Shown here piece by piece: positions 1,524-19,667 of a stretch of 26,996 nt of DNA. The stretch covers positions 1 through 26,996 of the forward strand of contig JBGTHM010000080.1 in the NCBI GenBank assembly GCA_041746255.1, read 5' to 3'. The stretch is from Fibrobacteria bacterium. GTDB lineage: Bacteria > Fibrobacterota > Fibrobacteria > UBA11236. Every line of letters starts with the position of its first letter. Positions within the stretch are counted from its first letter, which is position 1. The translations under genes were made by a program, and so were the position numbers. The notes under the pieces are model-generated. The model was not told the origin of the DNA, did no database searches, and saw only the letters and a program-made list of their open reading frames with translations.

Positions 1524-2318
1524 TTATCGGGGTGTGGGTTCGCTGGGCAGTAAGGGATCGGTTGGGTATAAATTCGGGGCAGAAGGTGATGGAGCATCGC
1601 TTTGAGACCATAACCATATGCCGGCTCCGGCAATTATGGTACCGGCTCCCAGGGTTCCCCAAAGCAGGGTTCTTCCCATTCTGGAATTCGCGGGTTTCAC
1701 ATCCGCTTTTTCCGGAAAATTTTGGGGTCTACCGCTGGTCTCGATTTTTTGCCTTTCGGAAAAATCGAGACTCTCAATGGTGGATCCCGCAAAATCCAAT
1801 CCAATCGGTTCCTTCCAAGGAGGTATCAAGTACAAACTGCCTTTGAAGTAAACCTGGGAAACGGTTACGTCGTAAGAATCGGAATAAACGGCTGTGTTGG
1901 CATTGAAAATCCGAGTATGACTCATCTTCAATTTTCCTGTGGGTCGAACCACTATGCCTCCCCATGCGGATGAACTGGGTCGAAACCCGAATGATCCCTC
2001 CTCAATGGATCCCGAAAAATAGACGGGTTCGTGTTCATTTCCCAGTGTAATTAACGTTCCTTCTACGATAATCACATTATTAGCGGTGGAATTGGGTCCG
2101 AAATGCAGCATAGTCCCGGAATGAAGGGTGGTCGTCGTGTTTTCGGCCACGACCATAGTGTCGCAGGGCGCATGGTAAGGCGTTTTGAGGTTGGAAAAGG
2201 GTTTGCCGAACATAGCAGGCAATTGCCTTAACGGTAGGCTATCACTCAGACAAGCTGCTCCGTAAGACAGGTTGGGCAGTGTTGAAAAGGCCAGGCAGCA
2301 GGCCAGGATGGTCCTCAT
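1524..2318 (-). CDS. Exported protein with a short beta-helix-like segment and C-terminal membrane anchor
   Basis: ATG at 2318 overlaps the upstream TGA (ATGA coupling). Signal peptide MRTILACCLAFSTLPNLSYGA. The motif IIVEGTLITLGNEHEPVYFSG...WGGIVV is typical of the start of parallel beta-helix domains. C-terminal TM (LLWGTLGAGTIIAGAGIWLW) followed by a Pro-rich tail. Confidence 0.75.
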   Translation of the reverse strand: MRTILACCLAFSTLPNLSYGAACLSDSLPLRQLPAMFGKPFSNLKTPYHAPCDTMVVAENTTTTLHSGTMLHFGPNSTANNVIIVEGTLITLGNEHEPVYFSGSIEEGSFGFRPSSSAWGGIVVRPTGKLKMSHTRIFNANTAVYSDSYDVTVSQVYFKGSLYLIPPWKEPIGLDFAGSTIESLDFSERQKIETSGRPQNFPEKADVKPANSRMGRTLLWGTLGAGTIIAGAGIWLWSQSDAPSPSAPNLYPTDPLLPSEPTPR

Positions 2319-5300
2319 GGCAATTCCTTCAGGTGCAGCATGGGTCTTTGCAGAACCTTGGTTCCGCTTGCGGTGCGGCCCGTCAGACGGGAAATATACC
2401 GCCCCGAAGTCCAATTCCCGGTTTCGAGCATGTGGGAATGCTTTCCGGGCCCCAGATTTTTCCACTGGTGTTGGTAAACGATTTTTCCGGTCATGTCGAG
2501 AATGTCCAGGGTAATCGCGTGATAGGGCCCCTCGGCATGGGGTATGGAAAAGGATATCCGGGTTTGGCGGGAGAATGGATTCGGGGCGTTGGGAGCCAGC
2601 ATGAAGGAGAATGCATGATCGGCCAACAAGGTTTTTTGCAATTGCTGAAAGGACCCGGAGGGCACGCTCAGGATGCGGAAGGTATGCGCCCCCTGGGCCA
2701 AGGGAATTAAGATTTCATTTTCGAGCGGTGTTAAGCTGGCTCCAGCCGGATCCCATAATGCGGCTGTGAGGCCTTTTTGCTTTCCGGATACGGGCTGGGC
2801 TTGAATTTTAACTTCGCCGGTGCGGGGCACATGCACAGTGAAAGAGTTGTCCAGCGAAGCTATGTCCTCTACGGATAACGTCGTTGCTGCCCGACCGGAG
2901 TTCCAGGCGGCGCGAAAGCCCTCGCGGAAAAAAGGGATGGCTGGTGAGGGTCTATGTGAGCGTCCTTCATGGATAGTAAGCTGGGAGCGTCCTCCGGTGG
3001 AAAAAGTAAGGCTCATGGTAAATCCGTTGAAACCGGCAGTTTGTTTCGGCGCGACCTTTTTTGCGAGTGCGGCGGCGATGGGGTTGAAAACCAATGAAGT
3101 TGGCGCTTCGGCATGCACGGCATACCCGGTAAACGGTTGCAAGGTATCGGCCTGCGACCATACGGGCTGAGCCGATGTTCCGGAACCCTCCCATATAAGG
3201 CCCTGGAAATAGGAAACCAGCGCGGGATCCAATTGGATATCGGCGTCGGAAAAGGGTATAGGGGTGGGATTGGAAATAATATTCCAGCCTTTTTCCAAAG
3301 CGAGAGTATCGGCGCCGACCATCCACTGATAGGTGGTTGCGAGACTTGCCTTCAGCTCGGCGGGGATGGCCAGTAAATAACCTTTTCCTTTGGTGAGATT
3401 GGCATTATTCGGTAGCGCCTTCCACTCACCCTGCCATTCCTTGGCGTTGGACTGGGCGGCTTGTTCCTTCGTGAGGGCGGCCAAAACCCCTCCGCCCAAT
3501 TCGACGGTATGTGGAAAGCCGACCAGGGATTTGACGCGCTCAGGATATTTCGGAGCAACGGCATTGACGGCGTCTCGAAACGCTCCGACGCTTACAGGTA
3601 CCGGAACTGCGGTCGTATCCCAGCTGATGACGTCGGAATAGGATTGGTAACCGAGGCGATACAGGACCAAGCCTTCGGGCAGATCAAGTGTATAAGCCGA
3701 GTCGCCGGGGATTCCGGATGGAGTTCGCACCTCCACTTGGCCGTTGGGAAGAATAACGGTGATTTCCGGAAAATAGGCCTTGAGTCGCGATTTCTCTTCC
3801 TGGGATAAGACCGGCGTCAAAGTCAGGCGGTTGTTTGCAACCTGGATCTCAGCCTGGGATTGGGGATAAACCGGAAGGGTATCGGTAGCCAACAAGGTTT
3901 CCACGGCCAAAACGGCTTGGTCTTGCGCCTGCATGTCGATACGATAGGTTTTACCGGCAAAGGTGAGGTTTTGCTTGACCCATGTTCCATTGCGTTGGAC
4001 ATAGGCTTTGACGAGTTCGGAGCGGTTGGGCGCCAAGCCGGATAGGACTAGAGTATACGGGTCTTGCAATTTCAAGTTATCCTGGCTGATATCCCTTTTG
4101 GCCAGTAACCTGAGGGTATCCGTTTTGAAGTCGACGGGAGTAAAGAGGGAATCGAGCAGCAAGTTCCCCGGCTGCGAAGAGAGAAGACCCAAGGCGGAAT
4201 CCGCTCCGATGGCGATATCGGTTTTTATGCCGGAAGGGACAAGGAATTTTCGCGCCAACGCCAACACTTTTCCGGAATCGGTGGGGGAGAGGGCTACGGT
4301 GACGGTGGATGAATCTTCATGGAGGGCTATTAGGGGTATGGCGGTTTTCGCGTCGATGAAAAAGGCTGCCTGGCGGGGGTGGGTTTTCTTAAGCCGAACC
4401 TGCAAGGAGTCCGCTTCAGCTCTTCCGGGCCAGCGCGAAGTAAATGGCTGTGAGAGCGCGCCCAAATGGGGGTGTTCCGCCAGGTCGATTTGTAGGGTGG
4501 AGTCGATTTGCAATTGGTGCCCAGCTACGCTTTTCGAAAGCACGGCGTGGCCTTGGGGTAGGTGAAGGGTATCGTATCCGCTACCTAAGGCCAGGCGTTC
4601 CATCAGCAAGGCTTGCAGGGTTTGGGCGAAGGGGAAGGTTCCCCACCATTGATCAACGGAGTCTTTGACCGCTAGGGTTGGGTTTTCTTCCAGCCGCCAA
4701 GCCAGGGAATCGGCAAGCCACGGTTGGGTCGCGTCACTTTGGGCCAAACCGATACGGATGGATTCGGAACCTTCGGCATTGGTGGTTAGCGCTACGCCCA
4801 AAGGGTTTTGGTTGCGACTTATCTGGCGAATGCGTTTCATGCCTTGCTCGGATTCGGGAGGCGAGAGGGTGGTTATACCTGCGCGCGTGATTTGGTCGAA
4901 TTGCACTGAGGTTTCTGAGGGAAGACCGGATGGCGTGATGTTGCTGCCCCTGGGGGTGTTCTGCCCCGCGAAGGCGGGAATAAAGATGCGAGCGGCGGCG
5001 GATGCATTGGTAAACACCAGGCTTCCAAGCGGACCGGGTGTTTGAGGGGTGAAGGTGTTTTCCGTTTGTGAGAACAGCAGGGGCGCGCCTTGCGGATCGG
5101 CTTCGGGGAAGGTGACGCTGTTGATGGCGACAGGGCCGCTGATTTGCAATGCGGTGTCTTGGAGCCAGAAGGTGCGCGTGGAATCGAGTGCGGAGGGATA
5201 GGCTCGAATTGCATACGTAGCTTGCAGGGAACGGGGGATAAGCGCGGAAGGGAAGCGAAGGACGAGGCTGTCTTTTGGCGCGAGGCGCTTGGCCAACAGG

Positions 5301-6352
5301 GTATCGCCGGGAAAGACATTGTAGGCGGGAAAAGCGCCGTCGGGGTTGGTGTAACCTCGAAGGTCGTCATCGGCGGGGCGGAAATCCCAGAGGGTTAGGG
5401 AGTCGCCGAAGGGGGCCATTTCTACATTTGAAGGATGCAGAAAAGACTCCGAAGCCGGATAATTATACCCGGCCCAGGTATTGAATCGGACATTTCCTAA
5501 TCGCGAACCCCCTCCGTCATAGTCGCTGAAAGTCATGGTAAATTTTTGAGCCCCCCCGGGTAGCCGATTATCAACGGGGGGATGGGCGAAAATATTATTG
5601 ACGAATATTCGAACTCCGGTAAAATTCCCATTCAACTGAAATTGCATTCGATTTACGGTGTTCTGATGCATCTCGATTTTTCCAGCGGTTTTACCGGCAA
5701 ACAAACCCGGGAAATTAAAATGGTTATTGACTAGAACGACGTCCTTAGCCGTGAAATCGATTTTAGCCGCAGCCCCACCTTGGTTGGCGACGATATAGCT
5801 CCGTCGAATTTCGATGCGGGAATCGGTATCGCCGCTATTCCAGGATAAAAACACGGAGTTGAATCGGTCCCCGAATATTTGGCAAGAGTCGATGAGGAGA
5901 TTGCGGTTGGGGCTGCCAGTAGCTGTTTCTATAAACTGGGCAGCTTCATTCACGGCCCGAAAGGCCAATCCCCGGAACACCACGGGGGCATTGATATTTT
6001 CCAGCTTGAATAATTTTCCGGTATATTCCACCACCTGTGCGTTCGGTTCAAATCTTTCGAAAATCAAACTATCGGCGTTGAGCCCGGCCAGATTGAAGGC
6101 GCCGACATCCGCATAGGTTTTGAAGCGCACCACATGGATGCCTCCGGGAGCGGCGCTGGCTATTTGGGTGGCGATTTGAGTAAGGCGGCCGGGCCCGTCA
6201 ACGAGATAAGTAGCAGCGAAGCCGGATCGAGGAAGGAATAGCGCAATTGTGAAAAAGAGGCCCAACAACCCTCGCCCGGCCTGGGAAAGGTTTGTTTTGG
6301 GTTTACTGCAAAATAGGCCAGCCACGTCCATGGGTCCAGGAAAATTAACCAA
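2315..6352 (-). CDS. Large secreted protein with T9SS/Por-type (FlgD-Ig-like) C-terminal sorting domain
   Basis: 1345-aa ORF with signal peptide (LLGLFFTIALFLPRSGFAA), N-terminal beta-helix-like repeats and an LEKGWNIISNP motif. The C-terminus FMLAPNAPNPFSRQTRISFSIP...LDILDMTGKIV...SGRYISRL matches the secretion-system CTD consensus. Start uncertain (TTG 6352 or ATG 6331). Confidence 0.85.
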   Translation of the reverse strand: MVNFPGPMDVAGLFCSKPKTNLSQAGRGLLGLFFTIALFLPRSGFAATYLVDGPGRLTQIATQIASAAPGGIHVVRFKTYADVGAFNLAGLNADSLIFERFEPNAQVVEYTGKLFKLENINAPVVFRGLAFRAVNEAAQFIETATGSPNRNLLIDSCQIFGDRFNSVFLSWNSGDTDSRIEIRRSYIVANQGGAAAKIDFTAKDVVLVNNHFNFPGLFAGKTAGKIEMHQNTVNRMQFQLNGNFTGVRIFVNNIFAHPPVDNRLPGGAQKFTMTFSDYDGGGSRLGNVRFNTWAGYNYPASESFLHPSNVEMAPFGDSLTLWDFRPADDDLRGYTNPDGAFPAYNVFPGDTLLAKRLAPKDSLVLRFPSALIPRSLQATYAIRAYPSALDSTRTFWLQDTALQISGPVAINSVTFPEADPQGAPLLFSQTENTFTPQTPGPLGSLVFTNASAAARIFIPAFAGQNTPRGSNITPSGLPSETSVQFDQITRAGITTLSPPESEQGMKRIRQISRNQNPLGVALTTNAEGSESIRIGLAQSDATQPWLADSLAWRLEENPTLAVKDSVDQWWGTFPFAQTLQALLMERLALGSGYDTLHLPQGHAVLSKSVAGHQLQIDSTLQIDLAEHPHLGALSQPFTSRWPGRAEADSLQVRLKKTHPRQAAFFIDAKTAIPLIALHEDSSTVTVALSPTDSGKVLALARKFLVPSGIKTDIAIGADSALGLLSSQPGNLLLDSLFTPVDFKTDTLRLLAKRDISQDNLKLQDPYTLVLSGLAPNRSELVKAYVQRNGTWVKQNLTFAGKTYRIDMQAQDQAVLAVETLLATDTLPVYPQSQAEIQVANNRLTLTPVLSQEEKSRLKAYFPEITVILPNGQVEVRTPSGIPGDSAYTLDLPEGLVLYRLGYQSYSDVISWDTTAVPVPVSVGAFRDAVNAVAPKYPERVKSLVGFPHTVELGGGVLAALTKEQAAQSNAKEWQGEWKALPNNANLTKGKGYLLAIPAELKASLATTYQWMVGADTLALEKGWNIISNPTPIPFSDADIQLDPALVSYFQGLIWEGSGTSAQPVWSQADTLQPFTGYAVHAEAPTSLVFNPIAAALAKKVAPKQTAGFNGFTMSLTFSTGGRSQLTIHEGRSHRPSPAIPFFREGFRAAWNSGRAATTLSVEDIASLDNSFTVHVPRTGEVKIQAQPVSGKQKGLTAALWDPAGASLTPLENEILIPLAQGAHTFRILSVPSGSFQQLQKTLLADHAFSFMLAPNAPNPFSRQTRISFSIPHAEGPYHAITLDILDMTGKIVYQHQWKNLGPGKHSHMLETGNWTSGRYISRLTGRTASGTKVLQRPMLHLKELP

Positions 6353-6486
6353 AATGGGTGTTTATGGCTCGATTATTAAGGGGGAAATGCCATTTTCTTG
6401 ACCCTACTCCTCAAAATGCCTGTGCCCGGGCTTGGGGTATCCAGGATGGGGTGAATGCGTTCACAAATCCTCGGAATTTTTCCCTG

Positions 6487-6512
6487 CGAACTTAGCATTA
6501 ATGATAAGTTCG
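6487..6512. repeat. 26-bp imperfect palindrome, copy 1 (CGAACTTAGCATTAATGATAAGTTCG)
   Basis: 12-bp arms with one mismatch around a central TA. 25/26 identical to the reverse complement of 9959-9984. Confidence 0.9.
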
Positions 6513-6744
6513 GTGATCGGAATTCCGGACTGAAATTGGGAACAAACCAGGATGGTCTCTGGACCCGACGCATACCTCCCGTTCGGATTTATTTTGAAAG
6601 GCTTTTACCCCCGCTACCCCGTATAACCTTTTATTTTACCCTTTTCTATAAATTTGTGTTACAAATAATTCGTCTCTGAATAAAAGCAGAAGCATACAAA
6701 AGTAAATCCGATATGCTATTTTTAAGCACACGGAAAATTTGAAG

Positions 6745-7191
6745 ATGTTTACTTTCGATAAACTTTGGGAAACGCACCCTGCCAGAAAAGGTGATATATA
6801 TCCTTGTTCTGAACCATCCGGTGATCCGCATTTTGCAAACCAATGTGCTATTCGGATGGCCGTTTGTCTTTCGGCATCTGGAGTGGATTTTACAAAAGAA
6901 AAATTAGCCCATTGCTGGCAACACGCAACGAAGGATGCCCATGTTTTACGCGCTCAAGAACTTGCGATTTGGATGGCAGCTACTCCGGCTATTTTCGGAA
7001 CAGTCGAAAAGAAAAAATCCGTGACTTCATCGGACTATAAGGACAGAAAAGGATTGGTTTTTTTCATGAATTTCTGGGGTCCGGGTAATCAGGGCGATCA
7101 CATTGATCTTTGGAATAATTCAGCAATGACACGAGGCGATCCCGAATATTTTTCACTCTCGTATGAGGTCTGGTTCTGGGATATTGTTTAA
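6745..7191 (+). CDS. tae4: Type VI secretion amidase effector, Tae4 family (NlpC/P60-like peptidoglycan amidase)
   Basis: Catalytic motifs NQCAIRM (Cys) and GDHIDLWN (His), C-terminal EVWFW and ~150-aa size all fit Tae4. No signal peptide. Alternative TTG start at 6739. Confidence 0.85.
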   Translation: MFTFDKLWETHPARKGDIYPCSEPSGDPHFANQCAIRMAVCLSASGVDFTKEKLAHCWQHATKDAHVLRAQELAIWMAATPAIFGTVEKKKSVTSSDYKDRKGLVFFMNFWGPGNQGDHIDLWNNSAMTRGDPEYFSLSYEVWFWDIV

Positions 7192-7812
7192 GCTATCGCT
7201 GGAATAAAAAATTCCATTCGGGCCAATTTTTCTCCAAATACCCTCAATTTTTATCTCTACCCACTTATCCCGGTTTGGCCTTATTTCATTGGCTAAATAC
7301 TCCGGGGAAACAACAACTTTTCCAGTTTGATTTATGAAACCCCAGTAGCCGCCATGGACTTCCATCGCAAATTTTTCTTCTACCATTTTGCAGCCCGTGC
7401 AAAAGGCGGCTAGTGGCGCGTAAAAGGGTAGTGTATAGTCGAATACGGGGTCGATAACCACAAGTCCCGTGCTATCATGAAACCCTACTTTTCCATTTCG
7501 GATAAATCGTGCCATCCCTCGATAATAATAGTCCGGGCCATTATCATATACAAGGGAATGAAATAACTTCCGTCCTTTTGAATCGATATAATACCATTGA
7601 TTCGAGGAGTCCAATACTGTGGCAATGCAGTGTTTTGTAAATGGGTTTGCGACCCAATATTGGGGTTCTATCGTAGGTTGGTTTTTGGTTTTATATCCCC
7701 ACATACCGTTTGAATCTTGGTAAGGATTCATCTCTGGACAAATTTTATGTGCGCATCCCCACAAAAAAGCGATTGAAAATAGAAATAGCAGGTAATTGAA
7801 GATTCTAATCAT
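7153..7812 (-). CDS. WG-repeat (KWG-type) lipoprotein, candidate immunity protein
   Basis: Lipobox FLWG-C after a hydrophobic stretch. Repeats NGMWGYK, WYYIDSKG, NGKVGFHDSTG, YWGFINQTG. Lies directly downstream of the Hcp fusion on the same strand. Confidence 0.85.
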   Translation of the reverse strand: MIRIFNYLLFLFSIAFLWGCAHKICPEMNPYQDSNGMWGYKTKNQPTIEPQYWVANPFTKHCIATVLDSSNQWYYIDSKGRKLFHSLVYDNGPDYYYRGMARFIRNGKVGFHDSTGLVVIDPVFDYTLPFYAPLAAFCTGCKMVEEKFAMEVHGGYWGFINQTGKVVVSPEYLANEIRPNRDKWVEIKIEGIWRKIGPNGIFYSSDSLNNIPEPDLIRE

Positions 7813-7859
7813 AGGGACATCATTTCGGTGCAATTCAAACAGTTGGTTTTTTAGAAAGA

Positions 7860-9815
7860 CTAAATTCTTTCAGAGACGATATTGAGTTTATGCTTTTTCC
7901 CCTTAATCTTCGGGATACTCACCTTTAATTTGGATCCATCCAATATTACAGCTGTAAAATAATTTAAAGGATTAATTTTGATACTGATGCACCCATCGGC
8001 ATCTGAGATAGACCGTTCTTTCTCTGTACCATTTTCAAATATTTGTATTTGGCAATTTGGGATGGGAGTGTTAAAAGGCGTGCAATAACGAATCGTAATT
8101 TCTTTGAGAGCATCAAGATTAATTTGTCGGTCCGATTCCACCACCAATCCATCATAAAATGCGCACCCAAATCCCTCGGTCCGCCGCTCTCCCGCCTTCT
8201 TCACCTGCCCCTGGCACGGACCGGTATTCCCGCGCTTGCAGGGGTACTCCACCGGAAAGGTCTGGCTCGATTTCACCAACAATACCGTTACCCGCCGATT
8301 CGCCTCGCTCCTATCTTCCGTCACCTCTACCCGGTTGAACTCGCTGCAACCCATATGCGGCTGCCCGTCCACCTTGTCAAAATATTTCGCCTTCAAGCCC
8401 AGATCCTTGACTTCCGGCACTGCGTCGATAAACCCCGTAAACAACGCCTCACGCGTCTTCGGCCCCGCAATTCCATCGGCCTTAAGACCCTGCGACTCCT
8501 GAAACCCCTTCACCGCCCATTGCGTCTTCGGACCATCCAACCCGTCTATCGCACCTGGATCATGGTCCGCATGTTTCAGAAGCGACTGCGTCGCCGCCAG
8601 GCTCCAATTTTCCTCTTTATGCAATTCCTCCCACACGCTCGGATCGCCCATCAAAAACGCATATACCGAACGGGCTCGCCGTTCCGACAGCCCCTTGTTG
8701 TAAGCCTCCTTGCCCACCGCATCCGTATGCCCGAACAAGGCCATCTTACCGTCGGGATAACTCTTCCTCCATGCCCCGATTTTCTCGCACAACTCTTTCA
8801 ACTTCGGAATCTGGTCCGGATGCAGGAAACTCGAATCGAATCCGAAAGTCACGCCCACCACCACATGCGTGTCAATAAGCGGATCCGCCATCTTATCCAC
8901 CGACTTCACGCCTTCGGGCTTGGCCCCCGAATCCAGCGGCTCCGACAACGTATGTTTGGCCGTGAAAAAATATTCCACTTCTTTGGGCGCTTCACCATCC
9001 CCGCGATAGCGAGGCTTGAATACCGGCATCTTACAAGTCGCGCGACCATTTTCGGTGAACCCGTCGGCCTTGGCGATTTGCTCCGGGCCCTTCGGGGTCT
9101 TGGCGAAAAGCACGAACTGTACTCGCTTGAGGCTTTTATGCTCCTCCGGCAATTGGCATTCCACCGATAGCGTGGCCTCTTCGTTGAAACCCACTTCCGT
9201 CGAACCCCACACGGGATTTTGCAGCAAAACCTCAACCACCTTTTCTTCTGGTTGTGGCGCGGGTTCCGCGTCGCCGTAATCGGTTTCCTCTTTGGCTTCT
9301 TCTTTGCCCGTATCCTTCAGGCTATCCCAGAAAAGGATGTAACCTTCGTCATGCAGCCAGGTCACCTTGTCATAGACCATCGCCACACGCGCCTGCAGCA
9401 ATTTCCCGCCGTCGCCGCCAAGCCTACCCAGCCGCGCCCCGCGCATCAGCGTGCGCACTTGCGTCAGACGTACGTTCTCAAGCGTATAGAGAAACACCCG
9501 TTTTTCCTTCGGTTCCTCCTCGACGCTGCCTTCCACCAAATCCCACAGCGAAATTTCCACCAGGGGTAATGTGCCGCTATGGCACAGGCATTCCATCAAT
9601 GAGGGGTAGGCTTTGTCCAGGGGCAAGGAGGCGTAAAAAGGTTCGTGGAAGCGGAGGTGACGGGTGCCGGTAAAACCGTTGCTTCGCTGTCGCAAAATGC
9701 GCACGGAGTGCGCGCCTTCCAGCAGCGGATAGCAGTTCTCACGACCGGGCAGGTCGATGGGACCGGGTAGGAATCCATTGATTCCGGCAAGGCGGATGTA
9801 GGTTTTGAGCGGCAC
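7860..9815 (-). CDS. Hcp (TssD)-like domain fused to an OmpA-like domain with an inserted peptidoglycan-binding domain
   Basis: Residues 1-~165 follow the Hcp pattern (RFHEPF...LDKAYPSLMECL...VEISLW...YTLENVRLTQV...VAMVYDKVTWLH). OmpA_C motifs FGFDSS, GHTDAVG...YNKGLSERRA and NRRV. PG_binding_1 motif DPGAIDGLDGPKTQWAVKGFQESQGLKADGIAGPKTREAL. GTG start. Confidence 0.85.
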   Translation of the reverse strand: MPLKTYIRLAGINGFLPGPIDLPGRENCYPLLEGAHSVRILRQRSNGFTGTRHLRFHEPFYASLPLDKAYPSLMECLCHSGTLPLVEISLWDLVEGSVEEEPKEKRVFLYTLENVRLTQVRTLMRGARLGRLGGDGGKLLQARVAMVYDKVTWLHDEGYILFWDSLKDTGKEEAKEETDYGDAEPAPQPEEKVVEVLLQNPVWGSTEVGFNEEATLSVECQLPEEHKSLKRVQFVLFAKTPKGPEQIAKADGFTENGRATCKMPVFKPRYRGDGEAPKEVEYFFTAKHTLSEPLDSGAKPEGVKSVDKMADPLIDTHVVVGVTFGFDSSFLHPDQIPKLKELCEKIGAWRKSYPDGKMALFGHTDAVGKEAYNKGLSERRARSVYAFLMGDPSVWEELHKEENWSLAATQSLLKHADHDPGAIDGLDGPKTQWAVKGFQESQGLKADGIAGPKTREALFTGFIDAVPEVKDLGLKAKYFDKVDGQPHMGCSEFNRVEVTEDRSEANRRVTVLLVKSSQTFPVEYPCKRGNTGPCQGQVKKAGERRTEGFGCAFYDGLVVESDRQINLDALKEITIRYCTPFNTPIPNCQIQIFENGTEKERSISDADGCISIKINPLNYFTAVILDGSKLKVSIPKIKGKKHKLNIVSERI

Positions 9816-10713: not shown

Positions 10714-11064
10714 ATGGCTATGACAAGGGAAGGCAAGGCGGAAAATTTTTTGAAAAACCTGGTCGAAAACCAAATGAATGATTTCAGGGAATTACGTGAC
10801 TTTGCGCCGAATCCAATCGTCAAAGGGTATTACGAACTCAAATTGCAAACCTTGGAATCCGCCATGCAGCGAATCAAATGCGACGTTTCCAATACTCGCA
10901 TTATCGAAACCTTTCAGGAATGCATTCAAGAATACCGCGATGAAATCAACCTCGGAATGAGCCGAAAAATCCTGGAACATTATGAAGACCGCATCGAAAC
11001 TTTACAATCGATACTCGACCGTTTTATCGGATTTTTAATGCAAACCGCCGAGGATGAAGAGTAA
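10714..11064 (+). CDS. Hypothetical helical protein with an internal duplication
   Basis: AGGAGA RBS. The stop overlaps the kinase start (TAATG). The two halves resemble each other (YYELKLQTLESAMQRI / HYEDRIETLQSILDRF). Confidence 0.75.
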   Translation: MAMTREGKAENFLKNLVENQMNDFRELRDFAPNPIVKGYYELKLQTLESAMQRIKCDVSNTRIIETFQECIQEYRDEINLGMSRKILEHYEDRIETLQSILDRFIGFLMQTAEDEE

Positions 11065-11948
11065 TGTTTCCTCTCTTCTGGGTAATCTTGCTTTTGTGCC
11101 TTTTGGTACCTGCATTGATTACCAATGTTATTTTGGCGAAGCGGCTGAAAGAGTCGCTAAAACAACGGAGTCGTTTAGAAAAGCGCCTCGACCGCGCCCT
11201 TTGCCGCACCCGCGAATATGCCCATTTACAGAGCCTGGGCAAGTCCACTTGCGGCTTGGTCCACGATCTTAAAAATCAACTTATGGCCGTATCCGGTCAT
11301 GCGGCCTTACTTTCTAAAACCGACCAGGTTGATAAGCGGGAGGCATTGGTTGAAAGGCTGAATGGTATTGTCTCTCGGGTCGAAAACTTCGCCAATAAAT
11401 TGCTGGAATTTTCCAAGTCCGTTTCTCTTCCGGATAAACACCCTTTGCGCCTAAGCGTACTTCTCCACCAATGTGTTGAATTGAATTTTCCCGGTCGCCA
11501 AGCCGACTTCCACTTTGGAGAGATTCCCGAAAATGAAGAATTAATGCAAGCGGATGCCTGCCAGCTCGACCGTGCATTCGCGAACCTCTTTCGCAATTGC
11601 CTGGAAGCCGGCGCCACCCGGGTCGAAATAGGACTTAAGGCCTCCCAGGGCAAAATACGCGTCTATATCGAAGACAATGGCCGCGGCTGCTCGCGAGAAG
11701 ATTTGCCAAGGTTGCCGATGGCTTTCTATACCACCAAAAAAAACCAGGGCGGTTCAGGCTTGGGATTAAGCGTGGCTCAGGACATCATCGAACGGCATTG
11801 TGGCGATATTCGGCTGTATTCCAAAAATTCCACGGGGGAAAACGAGACAGGCCTGATCCAGGTGGTACAATTTCAAATAGGGGACGAGACCCCTCCCTTG
11901 TCCCTCCCGCGGCGCAAGCGGAGTGATGGATACGTTCGTATGGTCTAG
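11064..11948 (+). CDS. Sensor histidine kinase (single N-terminal TM, HisKA + HATPase_c)
   Basis: H box GLVHDLKNQL, N box FANLFRNCLEA, G1 DNGRG, F box FYTTK, G2 GSGLGL. Confidence 0.93.
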   Translation: MFPLFWVILLLCLLVPALITNVILAKRLKESLKQRSRLEKRLDRALCRTREYAHLQSLGKSTCGLVHDLKNQLMAVSGHAALLSKTDQVDKREALVERLNGIVSRVENFANKLLEFSKSVSLPDKHPLRLSVLLHQCVELNFPGRQADFHFGEIPENEELMQADACQLDRAFANLFRNCLEAGATRVEIGLKASQGKIRVYIEDNGRGCSREDLPRLPMAFYTTKKNQGGSGLGLSVAQDIIERHCGDIRLYSKNSTGENETGLIQVVQFQIGDETPPLSLPRRKRSDGYVRMV

Positions 11949-12013: not shown

Positions 12014-12703
12014 TCAGATTGCGCGAGAATGATCCTCAATTTTACGCCCCTTCGTCTCTTCGGCTGATTTATGCGTAAAGTTATTTTCCTTTAGGTTGAT
12101 AAATAGCGGGTGGAGCGTGTCATTAATGAAAGTTGAAAATATGGGCGGCAAATTTGGAAAGGGTTTTGCTCCATATTTTATTAAAGTCTTATCTTGCGAT
12201 GTCCGCGTGCCTAAGAGACCCACTAAAAATTCGTAATTAAGTTCCATTGCTAAAGTCCCCGAGGCTGATAATAGCCTACTCCCCAAAGTATGGTGTCTCC
12301 ATCGAGGCTCTGTAAACCATCGGCCGGCTTCCGCCACCTTTCCGAGATCCATACCAATTTCCTTCAAAGCCTGGGCGGCCACGCCAGGTGGGAAAGATGT
12401 AAAGAAGAAGGCTGATGGAAATTCCCCCAGCGGCGCCAATACCCGAACACACCCTGCAATTTGACCGTCTATTCTTCCCACGATATGGCTCGCCCATTCG
12501 TCTACTTCTTCCCAATCCCAATACTGATTGGGACCAATTTGAAAGTGCGGATGTCCGGTATATTCTAACAGCATCCTTCCCCGAAAATCCGAGAGCTCGG
12601 CCTTCCAAGGCTCCACGGGATTCCCAGCAGGTACCAAGGCTTTCTCTCCGGGTACATGGACTTCCCATACCAGGCTATCGGGCATCAATGATGGCATAGG
12701 CAT
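12014..12703 (-). CDS. GNAT-fold N-acyltransferase, LuxI/FeeM (acyl-homoserine-lactone or N-acyl amino acid synthase)-like
   Basis: Motifs LSDFRG, EEVDEWASHIV...IAGCVRVL and VAEAGRWF...RWR follow the LuxI/FeeM pattern. ATG at 12703 has a GAGGTG RBS and overlaps the upstream gene end. Confidence 0.7.
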   Translation of the reverse strand: MPMPSLMPDSLVWEVHVPGEKALVPAGNPVEPWKAELSDFRGRMLLEYTGHPHFQIGPNQYWDWEEVDEWASHIVGRIDGQIAGCVRVLAPLGEFPSAFFFTSFPPGVAAQALKEIGMDLGKVAEAGRWFTEPRWRHHTLGSRLLSASGTLAMELNYEFLVGLLGTRTSQDKTLIKYGAKPFPNLPPIFSTFINDTLHPLFINLKENNFTHKSAEETKGRKIEDHSRAI

Positions 12704-13364
12704 GTTTATCCACCTCTTCCAAAACCCCCGCCAGCATGATTCCATGCAACCGGCACGCGCAGCGAAGTCCGAATAACAGCGCTTCCCGGTCCGCTTCCGT
12801 GATTAGAATTTCCGAGAAATTCTTCTCCATCATTTGCGTATGGGCCGGATCCACCTGGGTATGCTCATTGACAAAGGACATGGCGTTCGACGGCACACCC
12901 ATTTTGACCAGCCCTTCCCCGATTTGGGAAGCGGCCGTGGCGGGCAGCATTTCCAAATGGTAGACATAACCCAAATAGCCCACCGGGTTGCGGAACAAAA
13001 TCTGGTAAACCGAAAAGGCCGTAAAGGCCTCGGTGGTTGGCAACGGCATTCCCTCCGGAATTCCGCTTACGTCTTCCCCCAAGGCCTGCAAATCGTCCAG
13101 GGCCAAGTGGTGATGGCCGAATTCGGCGGAGGCATGCCGCAGCACGCGTTTGAAAATGGCATCGTGTTCGGGATCCAGGTACGCGGCGAAAAGCGCGTAG
13201 GTTTTGGGATTTTCGCGGGTATTGTAATAAATCTCGCGTAGGAGAGCCTTATAGTGCTCCAAATCCAATTCGCCGGAAAACAGTTTGCGGAAGAATTCGG
13301 TGCGGTAGAGTTGCTGAACCTCCGATTCCCATTCCGCTCGAATAGAAGCGATATCGACTTTCAT
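12675..13364 (-). CDS. Heme-oxygenase-like diiron enzyme (iron-containing redox enzyme; PqqC/CADD/TenA fold)
   Basis: Candidate metal ligands HASAEFGH, YHLE and EHTQVDPAH (HxxxDxxH). All-helical, 229 aa, strong AAGGAAGGAG RBS. Confidence 0.85.
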   Translation of the reverse strand: MKVDIASIRAEWESEVQQLYRTEFFRKLFSGELDLEHYKALLREIYYNTRENPKTYALFAAYLDPEHDAIFKRVLRHASAEFGHHHLALDDLQALGEDVSGIPEGMPLPTTEAFTAFSVYQILFRNPVGYLGYVYHLEMLPATAASQIGEGLVKMGVPSNAMSFVNEHTQVDPAHTQMMEKNFSEILITEADREALLFGLRCACRLHGIMLAGVLEEVDKHAYAIIDAR

Positions 13365-15398: not shown

Positions 15399-18300
15399 AT
15401 GCTTATGTCACGGTACTTGGCATCACTGGCGTTTTTCTGTTTTTTGCATCCGGTATATGCTGCAGATCTGCCCGCTTGCATCGATGGAATGGTTCTGCAT
15501 TCACAGGGGGAAATTATCCTGGGCGACCGGGGTAAAATACTCTCCGGTGGGGTGGGAGCCCATGGCGATATCCACATTGGAACCGGCCTCAAGGGCCACT
15601 CCAATTTCAAGGCCGGAGGGGATATTCTCGTCGCAAACAAGGTTAAAATTTTCGGCAATGCCCTTGCTGGCGGCAAAGTGGTGCTTTCGGACGGAGCGAA
15701 GGTTTTTGGAGCCATTGTAGAAGGCGAAGCATTACCTCCATGCGCCATATTCGTGGAACCCTTCACCGCTGGGAGTCAAAGCGTTCTGGTGAAATCGGGA
15801 AATTCCTTGGAACTACAGCCGGGGGACTATTCCGATTTATCCGTTCGCGGCCAGGGGCATTTACGGCTTACCTCGGGAATCTATCGCTTCAATGCCTTTT
15901 CGACGGAAGCGGGTGGGCACATACATTTGGATGCTGCAGCGGGTCCCATCCGGATCCTGGTGAAGTCAATGGAACTGGGTAGTCGAACCCGCATGCATAC
16001 CTCGGAGGACACTCTCCTGCATTCCATCGAGTTCCATTCATTGCAGGCATCCCCCATAGCGTTAGGGGCCGGCACCCATTTCCGAGGCGCCTTGGTCGCT
16101 CCCTTGGCCGAAATCAAGGTTGGGGTCGGAAGTATTCTGCGGGGCGCTTTTTGGGGAGGGCGGCTTGTCCTGGAGCCTGAGGTGAAGGTCTTTCATATTC
16201 ATGTTGGAGAAGGTCGGCAGGTGGTGGAAATCATCAGTCCCCCGGATGGATATATCACCCGGGAATATTCGGTGGGCGTAGAATGGATTGTCGATGGAGT
16301 TTCCCAAGCCACTCTGACTACCGAAGAGCTTCAGGTTGAAGGGGCTAATGAAATCATCCGCTGTGCGGGAACGGAATGTGCTCAAATTTCCGTTATTCGC
16401 GACACTCAGGCCCCGGTGGTGGTGATTACGAATCCGGGAGCGGATACCACGGTTGCTGAATCTCCTATCACCGTGGCTTATACTGTGGACGGAACTCTGC
16501 AGGATACCATCTGGGCACTGTCGGCGGGGGAAAACCTCTTGGTGGTGGAGGCTTTCGATGCGGCGGGAAACCGGGGTGTGGATTCCCTAAGGGTCAGGCT
16601 AGAGGCATTGGAGATGCTGACGGCGGTGGCCTCCGGGCCGGAAGGGGTTTTGTCATACACTTATTTTTCCTTGGATGCGCGGCAAAGCAGCTCTCCCCAG
16701 GGTACTCCCCTTCAATATCGTTGGAAACAGATAAGGGGAGAGCCGTTGGTGCTTTTCCATCCGGATCGATCGACTACGACGGGGCTGAGTCGCGGCCCGG
16801 ATATTCCGGCATTTGAATTGGAGGTACGGGATGCACTAGGCATGCTGGTCCCGGCCTTGGATACGGTGGCGATAACCGTGCGGGAAGCGGCCCACCCGGA
16901 AGAATTCCTGCAAGCCTTGCAAGCGGCGCAAAAAGTGCAGGATGGACCTTATCTCATGAGCCTTACCTCCGTGGGAGGGGAAGGAGCCTATTTTACGGCG
17001 GAGGATACACTATCCTTCAGCGGCACGGTATCGCGTGAAGACGGTCCTTTCGGCGTCATCCAATGGTTCTCCGCCTCGGCCTCCGGCGTGTTCAACCCAC
17101 AGGAGCTGGACTGGTCCGGATTGCTGGTGCCTTTATACGAGGGAGACAATCCGCTTACCTTCGTGTACTCCAAGGGGGGAAGGGTGGCGGTGGAAAGGGT
17201 GCTGGTAACCCACTCTACTGAATTGGAATTCGGAGAATTCCATCTCAGTCCGGATGTTCTGGAGGTGGGACGGCCGACGGATTTCCGGGTGCGGATCCCC
17301 ATCCAGGGCTCAGGTATCAACCGGGTAATTCTGGTGCGGTGGGGCGACTTCGAGCAGGAACTGGGTGATCTCCGGGACGATGGCGTGGGAGCGGATTCGC
17401 TGGCCGATGACGGCATATACTCGCTTGAGTTTTCGCTTACCCCCGTATCCGGCGAGGATTATTCCCTTCGCATCAAGGTGGTAGGGGATGGGGGCACGGA
17501 TTATTCCCGTATCCACTTCTTTTCGGCGCAGGAGCCGTTCTCAGACGCGGTTTATAATGAAATTCTCCAAGTCAATTCCCAAGCATCCTTCCTTTATGAT
17601 TCCCTTACGGCGGCTATAGGACGGGAGGCGGCCATGAATTTCGTGGCGGATTGGCTTATTGAACAACCCAATGTGATTGTCGCCGGAATCGGACCCGGAG
17701 GTCGGGCGATTTGTTGGCAATATGCGAGCGGAGTGCATGCCTTCATCAGCGATGCGCCGGAGGGTACGAAGGGAGGAACCAGGAAAATAAAAGTGAAGGG
17801 GCTTTCGCCATTTTTGTGGGAATTCAATGAGGTAGACAATTTTGGAGTGGTTCATGAGTTTGATGATGGCAGTGTCAGCTACAAGCCTATTCTTGGTGTT
17901 TTGAATCCCGTTGCTTATAGCGTTGATTCCTTGTTGGAAAATCGCACCTTTAGTGAAAAAAATGTTTCCATTGAAGATTGGAAGAATTGGGGCGGCTATA
18001 AAACAATAATGGTTTCCACTCATGGAAACACTTTCGGATACCAATCTCTCTCTCAAATCAGATACAAACCAACCCATGATCCCGAAAAAAATGGATCTTC
18101 TTATTGGGCCAAGCCCTACCTTTCCTTGGCAACCGGAATTGTCCTTGATCCCTTGAATAGGCCGCGCTATTGGAGCGAATTGAACTCCGGAGGTCCCTAT
18201 CCCCGCATGGTTGTTGAAGCTAGCTCCAATACTATCTGGCTCACGCCTACATTTTTCACCAAGTACAACAAGAACCTGGATGGCAGCCTTCTCTATATTT

Positions 18301-19667
18301 CCGCCTGCCGCGGCTTATATAATAATGGTCTTTGGGATGCGCTCCGCGCCAATGGCGATGATAAGATGGCGATGGTGGGCTACACGGAATACGTACTATC
18401 CGATTTTGCGAGTCAGGCTGGGAAGGTTCTCTATAAGGAGTTGACGCAAGGAACCGAATTAAAGGAGGCCATAGACTCTATCAGAGCATTCTGTTCCGGG
18501 AGCGGAGCACAATATTGTGGGGTGAGAGTAGGACGGGCCCATGACTTTTCGGATCCCGTTTCTCCGGCATTTCTGGAATGGCGCGGCAACAAGGACTACC
18601 ATCTGGTCTCCACCGACATTTATACCTGGGGAGGCAATAGGTGGGGACAACTTGGAAATGGAGAAAGGGATTTATCCAAAAATTCCGAAAACTGGACCCC
18701 GAACCGAATAATGAAAAAGGGCGGACTTAAAGTCGCAGCGGGAATTTCTAATGCACTTCTGCTTGCTGCGGATAGTTCAATCTGGTCCTGGGGCGCCAAT
18801 CATTCTGGGCAACTGGGTTTTGGTGATACCGCGACAAGAACTGTCCCGACCCAAATCCCAGGATTGGACAATGTGATAGACATATTTTCCGGCAGTGATG
18901 CCCACCACAACCTGGCATTGCTTGCGGATAGCACTTTGCGCGCATGGGGGTTTAACCGGTACGGGCAGCTTGGCGTAGGTCATATTAATGAATTCATACC
19001 GGTTCCCACGGCGGTTCACGGTTCCCGAAAATTCATACAGGTTGCGCCGGCTTTCTCCCACACCCTCGCTATAAGCGCCGACAGCACTTTATGGGCGTGG
19101 GGAACCGAGGAAAATGGTTCATTCGGAGACGGAATTGAAAGGAGTGTCACGCCGATACCTATGTCCGTGTCGTCAATGGGAAAAGTCGTACAGGTTGCAA
19201 TCGGGATTCCTTACGCACAATATGTTCTCAAAGCAGACAGTACATTATGGGCTTGGGGTACCAATTACGCCGGCAAGGTGGGCAATGGCAATTCAGATGT
19301 GCAATTTACACCCGTAGAGGTTTTGAAAAATGTAACGGAGATATCCTATCGTGATTTTCCCGTAGCCATTCGGGATGACAGTACAGTATGGACATGGGGA
19401 GATGGAGAATATTTAGGCGATGGTGTATGGACGCGTATGACACCGACCAAGGTTCCGGAAATCACGGGAGCTGTAGCCACTTCCTCAGGAAACCAATATC
19501 AGTTGATAGTAACTGCCAAGGGCGAGGTCTGGAGCTTCGGTAATAATAATGAAGGTATGCTGGGAGACGGGACTGAGGAGAGTCGTTCAAGGCCGGTCAA
19601 AGTCAAGAAGGTGACAACCGCGACATCCGTGGCGGCGGGATTCGATTCCGGGGTCGCACTGGAGTAA
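15399..19667 (+). CDS. Large secreted multidomain protein: beta-solenoid, Ig/PKD domains, DDG-motif domain, caspase/gingipain-fold-like domain, C-terminal RCC1 repeats
   Basis: Signal peptide. Solenoid end GALVAPLAEIKVG…GAFWG. Ig-like RDTQAPVVVITNP and AFDAAGNRG. PKD-like LDARQSSSPQGTPLQYRWKQ. LRDDGVGADSLADDGIYS. IMVSTHG…LLYISAC. About seven WG-N-xGQLG RCC1 repeats from ~18620. Confidence 0.88.
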   Translation: MLMSRYLASLAFFCFLHPVYAADLPACIDGMVLHSQGEIILGDRGKILSGGVGAHGDIHIGTGLKGHSNFKAGGDILVANKVKIFGNALAGGKVVLSDGAKVFGAIVEGEALPPCAIFVEPFTAGSQSVLVKSGNSLELQPGDYSDLSVRGQGHLRLTSGIYRFNAFSTEAGGHIHLDAAAGPIRILVKSMELGSRTRMHTSEDTLLHSIEFHSLQASPIALGAGTHFRGALVAPLAEIKVGVGSILRGAFWGGRLVLEPEVKVFHIHVGEGRQVVEIISPPDGYITREYSVGVEWIVDGVSQATLTTEELQVEGANEIIRCAGTECAQISVIRDTQAPVVVITNPGADTTVAESPITVAYTVDGTLQDTIWALSAGENLLVVEAFDAAGNRGVDSLRVRLEALEMLTAVASGPEGVLSYTYFSLDARQSSSPQGTPLQYRWKQIRGEPLVLFHPDRSTTTGLSRGPDIPAFELEVRDALGMLVPALDTVAITVREAAHPEEFLQALQAAQKVQDGPYLMSLTSVGGEGAYFTAEDTLSFSGTVSREDGPFGVIQWFSASASGVFNPQELDWSGLLVPLYEGDNPLTFVYSKGGRVAVERVLVTHSTELEFGEFHLSPDVLEVGRPTDFRVRIPIQGSGINRVILVRWGDFEQELGDLRDDGVGADSLADDGIYSLEFSLTPVSGEDYSLRIKVVGDGGTDYSRIHFFSAQEPFSDAVYNEILQVNSQASFLYDSLTAAIGREAAMNFVADWLIEQPNVIVAGIGPGGRAICWQYASGVHAFISDAPEGTKGGTRKIKVKGLSPFLWEFNEVDNFGVVHEFDDGSVSYKPILGVLNPVAYSVDSLLENRTFSEKNVSIEDWKNWGGYKTIMVSTHGNTFGYQSLSQIRYKPTHDPEKNGSSYWAKPYLSLATGIVLDPLNRPRYWSELNSGGPYPRMVVEASSNTIWLTPTFFTKYNKNLDGSLLYISACRGLYNNGLWDALRANGDDKMAMVGYTEYVLSDFASQAGKVLYKELTQGTELKEAIDSIRAFCSGSGAQYCGVRVGRAHDFSDPVSPAFLEWRGNKDYHLVSTDIYTWGGNRWGQLGNGERDLSKNSENWTPNRIMKKGGLKVAAGISNALLLAADSSIWSWGANHSGQLGFGDTATRTVPTQIPGLDNVIDIFSGSDAHHNLALLADSTLRAWGFNRYGQLGVGHINEFIPVPTAVHGSRKFIQVAPAFSHTLAISADSTLWAWGTEENGSFGDGIERSVTPIPMSVSSMGKVVQVAIGIPYAQYVLKADSTLWAWGTNYAGKVGNGNSDVQFTPVEVLKNVTEISYRDFPVAIRDDSTVWTWGDGEYLGDGVWTRMTPTKVPEITGAVATSSGNQYQLIVTAKGEVWSFGNNNEGMLGDGTEESRSRPVKVKKVTTATSVAAGFDSGVALE

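Follow-up and report, generated by a model that had tools for sequence, protein, structure and literature searches.

A probable specialised Hcp of a Fibrobacteria bacterium with a putative peptidoglycan-binding trunk and a short tail that may load a neighbouring Tae4 amidase

Why would a tube protein from a type VI secretion system (T6SS) carry modules expected to bind the cell wall, and what would its last domain be for? The question is raised by an open reading frame (ORF) at positions 7860..9815 of contig JBGTHM010000080.1 from a Fibrobacteria bacterium (assembly GCA_041746255.1), within a window that comprises the whole analysed stretch of 26,996 nucleotides (nt). A first-pass annotation of the sequence had read the product as an Hcp joined to an immunoglobulin-like (Ig-like) linker, an OmpA domain split by a peptidoglycan-binding (PGB) domain, and a transthyretin-like tail, and had proposed that the protein could tether a cargo amidase, the neighbouring Tae4, to target peptidoglycan. 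Computational follow-up confirmed that the observation is real, and the interpretation is supported in silico. The ORF very probably encodes a specialised ('evolved') Hcp of the organism's single T6SS, delivered by that system and belonging to a polymorphic family. Its extension of ~480 amino acids (aa) beyond the Hcp core compares with a criterion of more than 60 aa for a specialised Hcp (PMC8262886).

The Hcp-like N-terminus was borne out by both sequence and fold. A Pfam scan matched aa 6-155 to T6SS_HCP (PF05638) with 26.3 bits against a cut-off of 23.5, a six-frame search of the genome gave 30.2 bits for the same family, and the NCBIfam model TIGR03344 scored 31.7 bits, under its cut-off of 58.9. 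An AlphaFold2 model of aa 1-185, built from an alignment of 29 sequences, has a predicted local distance difference test (pLDDT) score of 81, and the top matches listed by Foldseek in the PDB are Hcp structures or Hcp fusions (6a2v, 4hkh), with a probability of 1.0 and template modelling (TM) scores to the target of 0.72-0.88. No signal peptide was evident when the N-terminal sequence was read directly, in agreement with the earlier reading. The codon that matches the GTG start is ATG in the paralog on contig C125 and in a same-genus copy in genome G270.

The remainder of the protein (aa 176-651) was modelled by AlphaFold2 from 76 sequences with an overall pLDDT of 87.4, rising to 94-98 across aa 195-555; trunk relatives and canonical Hcps were aligned separately, a joint alignment having placed the Hcps onto the trunk. 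Comparison of this model with 48,161 chains by VIA-align, which did not extend to the tail, resolved three folds and upheld both the Ig-like domain and the split OmpA domain; the PGB domain is thus nested inside the OmpA-like fold, whose matches include PDB entries 5m38 and 4b62. Pfam is in accord, with OmpA (PF00691) scoring 35.1 bits at aa 323-389 (a match limited to positions 1-65 of the 98 in the model) and PG_binding_1 (PF01471) at aa 409-458 (53 bits), both above the curated cut-offs, the latter also having the three-helix fold of its family. Foldseek with the 476-aa model returned chiefly noise (GH2 enzymes, nanobodies) besides OprF and Pal, and the ESM Atlas gave weak leads only (0.80), to unnamed OmpA/PGB clusters.

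The residues expected for peptidoglycan binding are kept. In the OmpA motif TD...N..LS.RRA, residues D365, S377, E378, R379 and R380 are invariant in all 14 aligned family members, and its Asp and Arg are presumably those that contact the diaminopimelate moiety. The NRRV motif at N506-V509, almost invariant in the family alignment, corresponds to ~nt 8300, and the motif positions given in the first-pass annotation agree with the residues throughout. Four cysteines, one in the C-terminal part of the OmpA fold (C490) and three in the adjoining cap (Table 1), are likewise almost invariant, as are the FYD columns.

The C-terminal tail consists of six beta strands in the AlphaFold2 prediction (pLDDT 60-74). 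Pfam returned below-threshold matches only, to MG4 (E 0.075) and CarboxypepD_reg (E 0.27), both far under their cut-offs, so that of the proposed transthyretin-like tail the all-beta prediction stands, while the transthyretin-like fold itself is plausible rather than established.

The genome (130 contigs, 4.59 Mb, 53% GC, rated 100% complete) contains five Hcp-family matches, namely one canonical Hcp (166-aa frame, 112.6 bits) and four long frames, on contigs C80 (652 aa), C125 (636 aa), C123 (917 aa) and C89 (1111 aa). These long paralogs, of which the present Hcp-trunk protein is one, are 86-89% identical across their first ~560 residues. By blastn, DNA homology between this copy and the other three ends exactly at codon 560, after FYDGLVVE, in every one of the three pairs; its other end lies ~170 nt upstream of the start in two of them and ~10 nt upstream in the C125 pair, which has one more short upstream block. 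The GC content steps down at the same junction, from 56-60% in the trunks to 41-49% in the tails and 39-45% in the 1 kb downstream of the tails, with 36% in the tail of this copy. Because the shared promoter-proximal DNA and first 560 codons give way so sharply to unrelated low-GC tails and downstream genes, the design is that of a polymorphic effector. Such a pattern marks polymorphic toxin systems, whose delivery region is conserved while the C-terminal cassettes behind it are exchanged. The four copies lie apart from one another and from the T6SS cluster, with housekeeping and restriction-modification genes around them.

What follows the junction differs from copy to copy, each paralog having a cassette of its own that was probably acquired horizontally. 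The tail of the present copy has no toxin match, that of the ~1110-aa paralog (P0003) has an HExxH motif around which it aligns with the tails of P0006 and P0010 from other organisms, and some relatives have Tle1-like tails. In two paralogs the cassette opens with a long tail, one of them with the HExxH motif, followed by downstream genes; the genes downstream of the paralogs had no Pfam match. The long tails of the C123 and C89 loci (L008:8203-9577 and L009:7649-10350) also lack a significant Pfam match, the one without HExxH having a weak CHAT-like match (E 0.07), and behind each lies an unannotated gene (119 and 349 aa), each locus being a candidate for a new toxin/immunity pair. The short-tailed paralog of ~635 aa on C125 has, downstream on its own strand, three genes without a Pfam match (423, 257 and 298 aa; L010:9110-12200), which may represent a cargo effector with accessory or immunity genes.

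None of the 25 ORFs of the window scanned with Pfam belongs to a T6SS core family, as the earlier reading had held, and the core genes were found elsewhere in the genome. One end of contig C62 carries TssL, TssM, TssB and TssC, contig C26 the canonical Hcp with TssF and TssG, and contig C97 one VgrG; apart from ORF 7860..9815 itself, all genome-wide matches to Hcp, TssC and VgrG are on other contigs. The PAAR motif (PF05488) was not found in this genome, rated complete as noted above. With no PAAR, one VgrG and four specialised Hcps, effector loading in this organism may rely mainly on Hcp.

An architecture search placed the Hcp-trunk combination among four polymorphic paralogs and the trunk itself in a much larger family. 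A word-indexed search retrieved 164 trunk relatives at E<=0.001, and among the 120 best listed of these a precomputed Hcp match was present in 4, comprising the three paralogs and the metagenomic protein P0014 only. The Ig/OmpA/PGB trunk is common to more than 100 Fibrobacterota proteins that are headed by an MNLDPF tag and not by Hcp; these are 45-57% identical to this ORF over the Ig-like, OmpA/PGB and cap regions, and their N-terminus is a short 'MNLDPF...DIF.KPK.GGG.GR' tag followed by an acidic linker. Scanning of species-representative genomes identified 74 trunk loci, the best of them in metagenome-assembled genomes (MAGs) titled Fibrobacterota or Fibrobacteria, often several per MAG. 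Among 55 long relatives scanned with Pfam, OmpA (model positions 1 to ~66) followed by PG_binding_1 was present in 54; their tails carried a Tle1-like catalytic domain in two cases and CarboxypepD_reg in one, the remaining 52 being tails of 300-500 aa without a Pfam match. A further relative (L027) has a Tle1-like domain at 109 bits, and TssC was present in all five relatives' genomes tested.

The trunk has more distant forms in Myxococcota, Eisenbacteria, Zixibacteria and other phyla; these lack the Ig domain, and their head is LysM-like. Among them (loci L038, L040, L042, L044, L045 and L048 and proteins P0073 and P0084, from MAGs of Myxococcota, Eisenbacteria, Zixibacteria, Thermodesulfobacteriota and Gemmatimonadota), OmpA/PGB and cap are headed by the LysM-like sequence MGFE..AK.Y.P.EGDTL..IA... 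and followed by variable tails.

The Hcp domain has a far narrower distribution. An exhaustive HMMER search of 1.84 billion representatives with this domain returned only 30 proteins at E<=0.001, namely two paralog representatives, P0014 and canonical Hcps at 27-31% identity; P0014, which is otherwise unrelated, has an Hcp domain 37% identical to this one and also possesses the trunk. Across 296 genomes of the phylum, a set that takes in one unpublished genome (G259) for the tallies only, 103 contained a match to this Hcp domain, with identities above 80% confined to the source genome (four) and to G270 (three), the sole other genome of the genus. Each of the three G270 copies is interrupted by a contig end, but its frame continues from Hcp into the Ig-like domain. 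The tag, searched for with a profile, is present in 12 of the 296 genomes, all of them in the taxonomic family of the source (12 of its 31), with up to 12 copies per genome, and none in the source genus. Because the tag and the Hcp matches above 80% fall in different genera, one and the same trunk is headed by either tag or Hcp within a single family. It is from this exchange with Hcp that a secretion role for the tag suggests itself, and from the sequences we infer that the tag may be a T6SS loading signal whose recognition was replaced, in the source genus, by covalent fusion to Hcp.

The tag occurs on proteins of ~150 to 1375 aa, and may be a lineage-specific T6SS secretion marker like MIX, FIX and RIX. 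Other Hcp fusions were seen in a different family of the phylum, namely P0142 (Hcp with PG_binding_1, 506 aa) and P0138 (Hcp with Amidohydro_2, 806 aa); the Hcp-domain query also retrieved P0133 and P0147, Hcps of 282-285 aa with a ~120-aa extension.

Directly downstream of this ORF lies a gene for a WG-repeat lipoprotein, in which a signal peptide and a ...LWGC lipobox can be read, and which has no sequence relative in the PDB. Converging on it from the other side, and overlapping its 3' end by 39 nt, is a gene for a Tae4-family peptidoglycan amidase of 148-150 aa, the sole copy in the genome, whose PDB relatives are Ssp1 and Tae4 structures. Its Cys34 and His119, which we take to be the catalytic residues, are invariant in all 56 aligned sequences. 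Tail, lipoprotein and Tae4 are contiguous in one low-GC module (Table 1), which includes the region upstream of Tae4 (42% GC), though Tae4 is convergent and not in the carrier operon.

The proposal that the tail is an adaptor for Tae4 found in silico support of three kinds, the first being a prediction of the complex, the second this shared low-GC cassette, and the third the position of Tae4 behind carriers in related genomes. The complex of the tail (aa 558-651, without an alignment) and Tae4 (alignment of 56 sequences) was predicted with a score of 0.74, the best of three controls reaching 0.00; the mark applied to this score is reached by 116 of 157 solved complexes and by 2 of 215 mismatched pairs. 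Scores in the three runs were 0.00, 0.74 and 0.78, with agreement in at least 0% of contacts and a pLDDT of at least 77 for the partner. In the predicted interface, tail residues 628-649 meet Tae4 residues 18-32, 68-72 and 115-118, beside the invariant Cys34 and His119. The model supports binding of Tae4 by the tail, which we consider probable.

Tae4 is rare in the phylum, being found in 4 of the 296 genomes. In G249 a protein that combines PAAR, prealbumin-like (SpaA, CarboxypepD_reg) and LysM domains is encoded immediately before the homologue, and two lipoprotein-like genes, paralogous to each other, come after it. In G263 there is an overlap between a Tae4-like gene (73.4 bits) and the end of the gene for a 238-aa protein that consists of the tag, an Ig-like domain and a small beta tail, and in G250 no carrier was found near Tae4. 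Proteins of the tag-Ig-tail layout recur as short tag proteins of 271-282 aa, which head three-gene operons of carrier, ~190-aa lipoprotein and a 480-514-aa protein at six loci in five genomes (L118, L119, L120, L121, L123 and L124, from G267, G265, G262, G264 and G255), a count that refers to six of the eight loci fetched, L122 and L125 having been left out for want of a tag ORF in the ORF call. The third protein is a class-3 lipase (PF01764, 81-109 bits) in all four cases scanned. The Ig-like domain of the short tag proteins is 28-33% identical to aa ~185-300 of this ORF in four of the five compared, the fifth (G264) having no match to it at E<=0.01. These operons look like modules of adaptor, immunity protein and Tle-type cargo effector. 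Their order of carrier, lipoprotein and effector is the order at the present locus.

Together these observations suggest the following mechanism, which as a whole we hold to be somewhat more likely than not. The Hcp domain would insert the protein into the T6SS tube, probably as the minor partner of canonical Hcp subunits, since one ring has no room for six extensions of 52 kDa. The tail would serve as a loading platform, its last strands predicted to pair with Tae4 residues 25-32 near Cys34 and His119. Firing would carry the tail-Tae4 pair into the periplasm of a rival, where the OmpA-like and PGB modules may hold the complex on the sacculus while Tae4 cuts the peptide stems; binding to the peptidoglycan of the prey is suggested because the binding motifs are intact and the payloads of the family act in the periplasm (Tae4, Tle1-like domains, class-3 lipases). 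The lipoprotein, presumably periplasmic, would protect sister cells.

Several observations weigh against this mechanism. The Tae4 gene converges on that of the lipoprotein from the other strand, which rules out its transcription together with the carrier. In the complex prediction one run of three scored 0.00 and the tail had no alignment behind it, and the tail model is of moderate confidence only. The tail resembles the terminal domain of the G249 PAAR carrier marginally (E 0.009, in a single comparison) and showed no similarity to the tail of the G263 tag protein; a search for relatives of aa 558-651 gave 22 candidates, in proteins of 358-1140 aa, none at E<=0.01. The putative Tae4 immunity proteins in G249 and G250 bear no relation to the WG lipoprotein and have no homologue in the source genome (nor has the G263 membrane protein; best E 0.57), so that this lipoprotein is a non-homologous immunity candidate only. 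Finally, an extension of 476 aa is far bigger than the Hcp extensions described so far, and would have to fit in a sheathed tube.

Several of these points would be accommodated if the tail were instead a small toxin or the degenerate remnant of one, with the WG lipoprotein as its immunity protein and Tae4 an independent cargo effector next door. A toxin domain followed by its immunity gene is the canonical polymorphic order, and here the lipoprotein gene comes directly after the tail on the same strand, with Tae4 transcribed from the other; the lack of relation between the lipoprotein and the immunity candidates of G249 and G250 also speaks for it. We nevertheless regard this as unlikely: the tail is a 91-aa all-beta domain without a toxin-family match, the tail-Tae4 prediction passes its controls, in the carrier/lipoprotein/lipase operons that begin with short-tailed relatives the third gene is clearly the toxin, and tail, lipoprotein and Tae4 lie in one GC island.

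Loading might also bypass the tail. Small effectors are known to be carried in the lumen of Hcp rings (PMC10433429), and Tae4, a small protein encoded beside a specialised Hcp, could be carried in rings of Hcp domains in the same way, leaving the tail with another role or none; such loading would be compatible with binding to the tail. As the sole route it appears still less likely, since the Tae4 homologues in related genomes follow carriers that are not Hcps (PAAR or tag-Ig-tail proteins), and the interface prediction between tail and Tae4 passes.

A protein with OmpA-like and PGB domains could also be a structural accessory that is not secreted and anchors the producer's own T6SS to the cell wall, like TagL or evolved TssL. 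We rejected this role as highly improbable: there is no signal peptide or membrane segment to bring the wall-binding domains to the producer's periplasm, the four paralogs end in unrelated low-GC tails, relatives end in Tle1-like toxin domains, and the loci are scattered away from the T6SS cluster. Although repeated paralogs do break assemblies and all three G270 copies end at contig ends, the idea that separate Hcp and OmpA genes were joined by an error of assembly or by a frameshift was rejected as next to impossible, because the frame is open across the join in four separate contigs, and the join recurs independently in G270 (82% identity across it) and in P0014, with its much diverged Hcp domain. 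The loading-platform mechanism is thus preferred over each of these readings, and the coordinates on which it rests are collected in Table 1.

Table 1. Coordinates of the Hcp-trunk ORF, its domains and the adjoining cassette in the window.
Feature	Position	Strand	Remarks
Whole ORF, specialised Hcp with peptidoglycan-binding trunk and short tail	7860..9815	minus	651 aa, GTG start
Hcp (TssD) domain, aa 1-170	9306..9815	minus	Pfam PF05638, AF2 (AlphaFold2) model, Foldseek, alignment with canonical Hcps
Acidic Pro-rich linker, aa 171-193	9237..9305	minus	pLDDT 46-55 at model ends
Ig-like beta-sandwich, aa 194-309	8889..9236	minus	Present too in MNLDPF-tag relatives
OmpA-like domain, N-terminal part, aa 310-390	8646..8888	minus	Contains FGHTDAVG...NKGLSERRA motif
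PG_binding_1 nested inside OmpA-like fold, aa 391-466	8418..8645	minus	
OmpA-like domain, C-terminal part, aa 467-516	8268..8417	minus	Contains NRRV; OmpA alignments span model 132-341
Conserved cap, aa 517-560	8136..8267	minus	Cys526, Cys534, Cys551; ends in FYDGLVVE, where paralog homology stops
Copy-specific tail, aa 561-651 (91 aa), small beta domain, proposed Tae4 loading platform	7863..8135	minus	36% GC
WG-repeat lipoprotein, 226 aa, candidate immunity protein	7153..7833	minus	Directly downstream; WG_beta_rep 49.7 bits; 41% GC
Tae4-family peptidoglycan amidase	6739..7191 (probable ATG 6745)	plus	PF14113 71.6 bits, cut-off 27; 43% GC
Low-GC cassette (36-43% GC): tail, lipoprotein, Tae4, Tae4 upstream region	6353..8135	both strands	Between trunk (55-62% GC) and 55% GC gene

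Elsewhere in the window, a 1345-aa protein with a hydrophobic N-terminus is encoded at 2315..6352 on the minus strand; with a below-cut-off match to Por_Secre_tail (19.6 bits), it is probably a surface protein exported by the type IX secretion system (T9SS). On the other side of the ORF, a histidine kinase gene lies at 11064..11948 (plus), a gene for an iron-containing redox enzyme (Haem_oxygenas_2, 71 bits) adjoins one with a weak GNAT-like match at 12014..13364 (minus), and a 1422-aa protein with RCC1-like repeats (WD40_RLD 214 bits, RCC1 159 bits) is encoded at 15399..19667 (plus).

If the mechanism holds, it would suggest a targeting principle in which the wall-binding trunk holds periplasm-acting enzymes, such as Tae4 and Tle-type lipases, at their site of action, and it raises the structural question of how a tube subunit carries a folded 52-kDa extension plus cargo. 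The swap between tag and Hcp among genera of a single family would be a natural experiment on cargo recognition evolving into covalent fusion. The trunk and the MNLDPF tag provide handles for finding T6SS effectors in Fibrobacterota, and the 52 Pfam-unmatched tails among the 55 long relatives are a pool of candidate new antibacterial domains.

In the literature searched, chiefly openly accessible papers, we found no description of an Hcp fused to OmpA/PGB modules, of an OmpA fold with a nested PGB1 as an effector trunk or of an Hcp acting as a cargo adaptor, nor any paper on T6SS effectors in Fibrobacterota. What may set this system apart is a swappable delivery determinant (a ~40-aa tag in sister genera, a fused Hcp in every copy of the source genus), combined with the first loading platform borne by the tube and not the spike, and the first carrier with a cell-wall homing module of its own that concentrates a non-covalently held amidase on the sacculus of the prey; we put this forward tentatively, with rather less than even confidence.

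The nearest relatives in design are the specialised Hcps, or Hcp-ET toxin fusions, of Enterobacteriaceae, reportedly described by Ma et al. in 2017. They share with this ORF an N-terminal Hcp with a C-terminal extension, orphan loci away from the main T6SS cluster and polymorphic C-termini. In the classes described, Hcp is followed immediately by its toxin (HNH or colicin DNase, DUF2235, pyocin S3 or papain-like; PMC10433429), whereas here a conserved trunk of 390 aa lies between Hcp and the variable end, and the end of this copy looks like a cargo-binding tail and not a toxin.

For cargo binding the comparison is with RIX-domain proteins, PAAR and VgrG, which provide C-terminal, often transthyretin-like platforms for the N-terminus of a cargo effector, one RIX adaptor being listed as for Tae4 (PMC10435454); a transthyretin-like extension is also known from the VgrG-TTR/Tle1 case (PMC10433429). 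Common to these and to the present system, as predicted here, is a small terminal beta domain for a stand-alone cargo, encoded in one module with an immunity gene (a candidate one here), and in both one delivery domain also heads true toxins. The present system differs in that the delivery domain is Hcp (the tag in relatives) and not RIX, PAAR or VgrG, a peptidoglycan-binding trunk separates it from the tail, the Tae4 gene is convergent and outside the operon, and a transthyretin fold is only plausible. Our reading would thereby extend the idea of secreted adaptors to an Hcp tube protein.

Wall binding by secreted T6SS structural proteins has its precedent in evolved VgrGs. VgrG-3 of V. cholerae is an evolved VgrG with a peptidoglycan-binding domain. 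A Vibrio VgrG combines a PGB domain with a T6EC3 domain (bioRxiv 10.1101/2023.03.26.534264). These too unite a secreted structural protein, a peptidoglycan-binding module and a wall-targeting activity, but they are spike proteins with a single PGB and a fused enzyme, whereas the tube protein described here nests one wall-binding fold in another of a different kind, and its amidase is predicted to be held non-covalently. The anchors TagL and evolved TssL (5m38, 4b62) have the same OmpA-like fold with an intact (T/S)D...N..LS.RRA motif, but are membrane-anchored proteins of the producer, while this one lacks an export signal, is polymorphic and is fused to Hcp. In the survey of polymorphic toxins by Zhang et al. 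(2012; PMC3482391), PGB1 and LysM occur inside toxins, a 'Tox-OmpA' is found at the C-terminus and short toxins are fused to Hcp1; the combination of Hcp, Ig, OmpA with nested PGB1 and a variable tail is not listed in the available portion of that survey, whose Tox-OmpA occupies the extreme C-terminus of toxins delivered by the Photorhabdus virulence cassette (PVC). Finally, like the marker domains MIX, FIX, RIX and WHIX, the MNLDPF tag is lineage-restricted and N-terminal and heads both toxins and adaptors in T6SS-positive genomes, but it is unrelated to them in sequence, and at ~40 aa is probably disordered.

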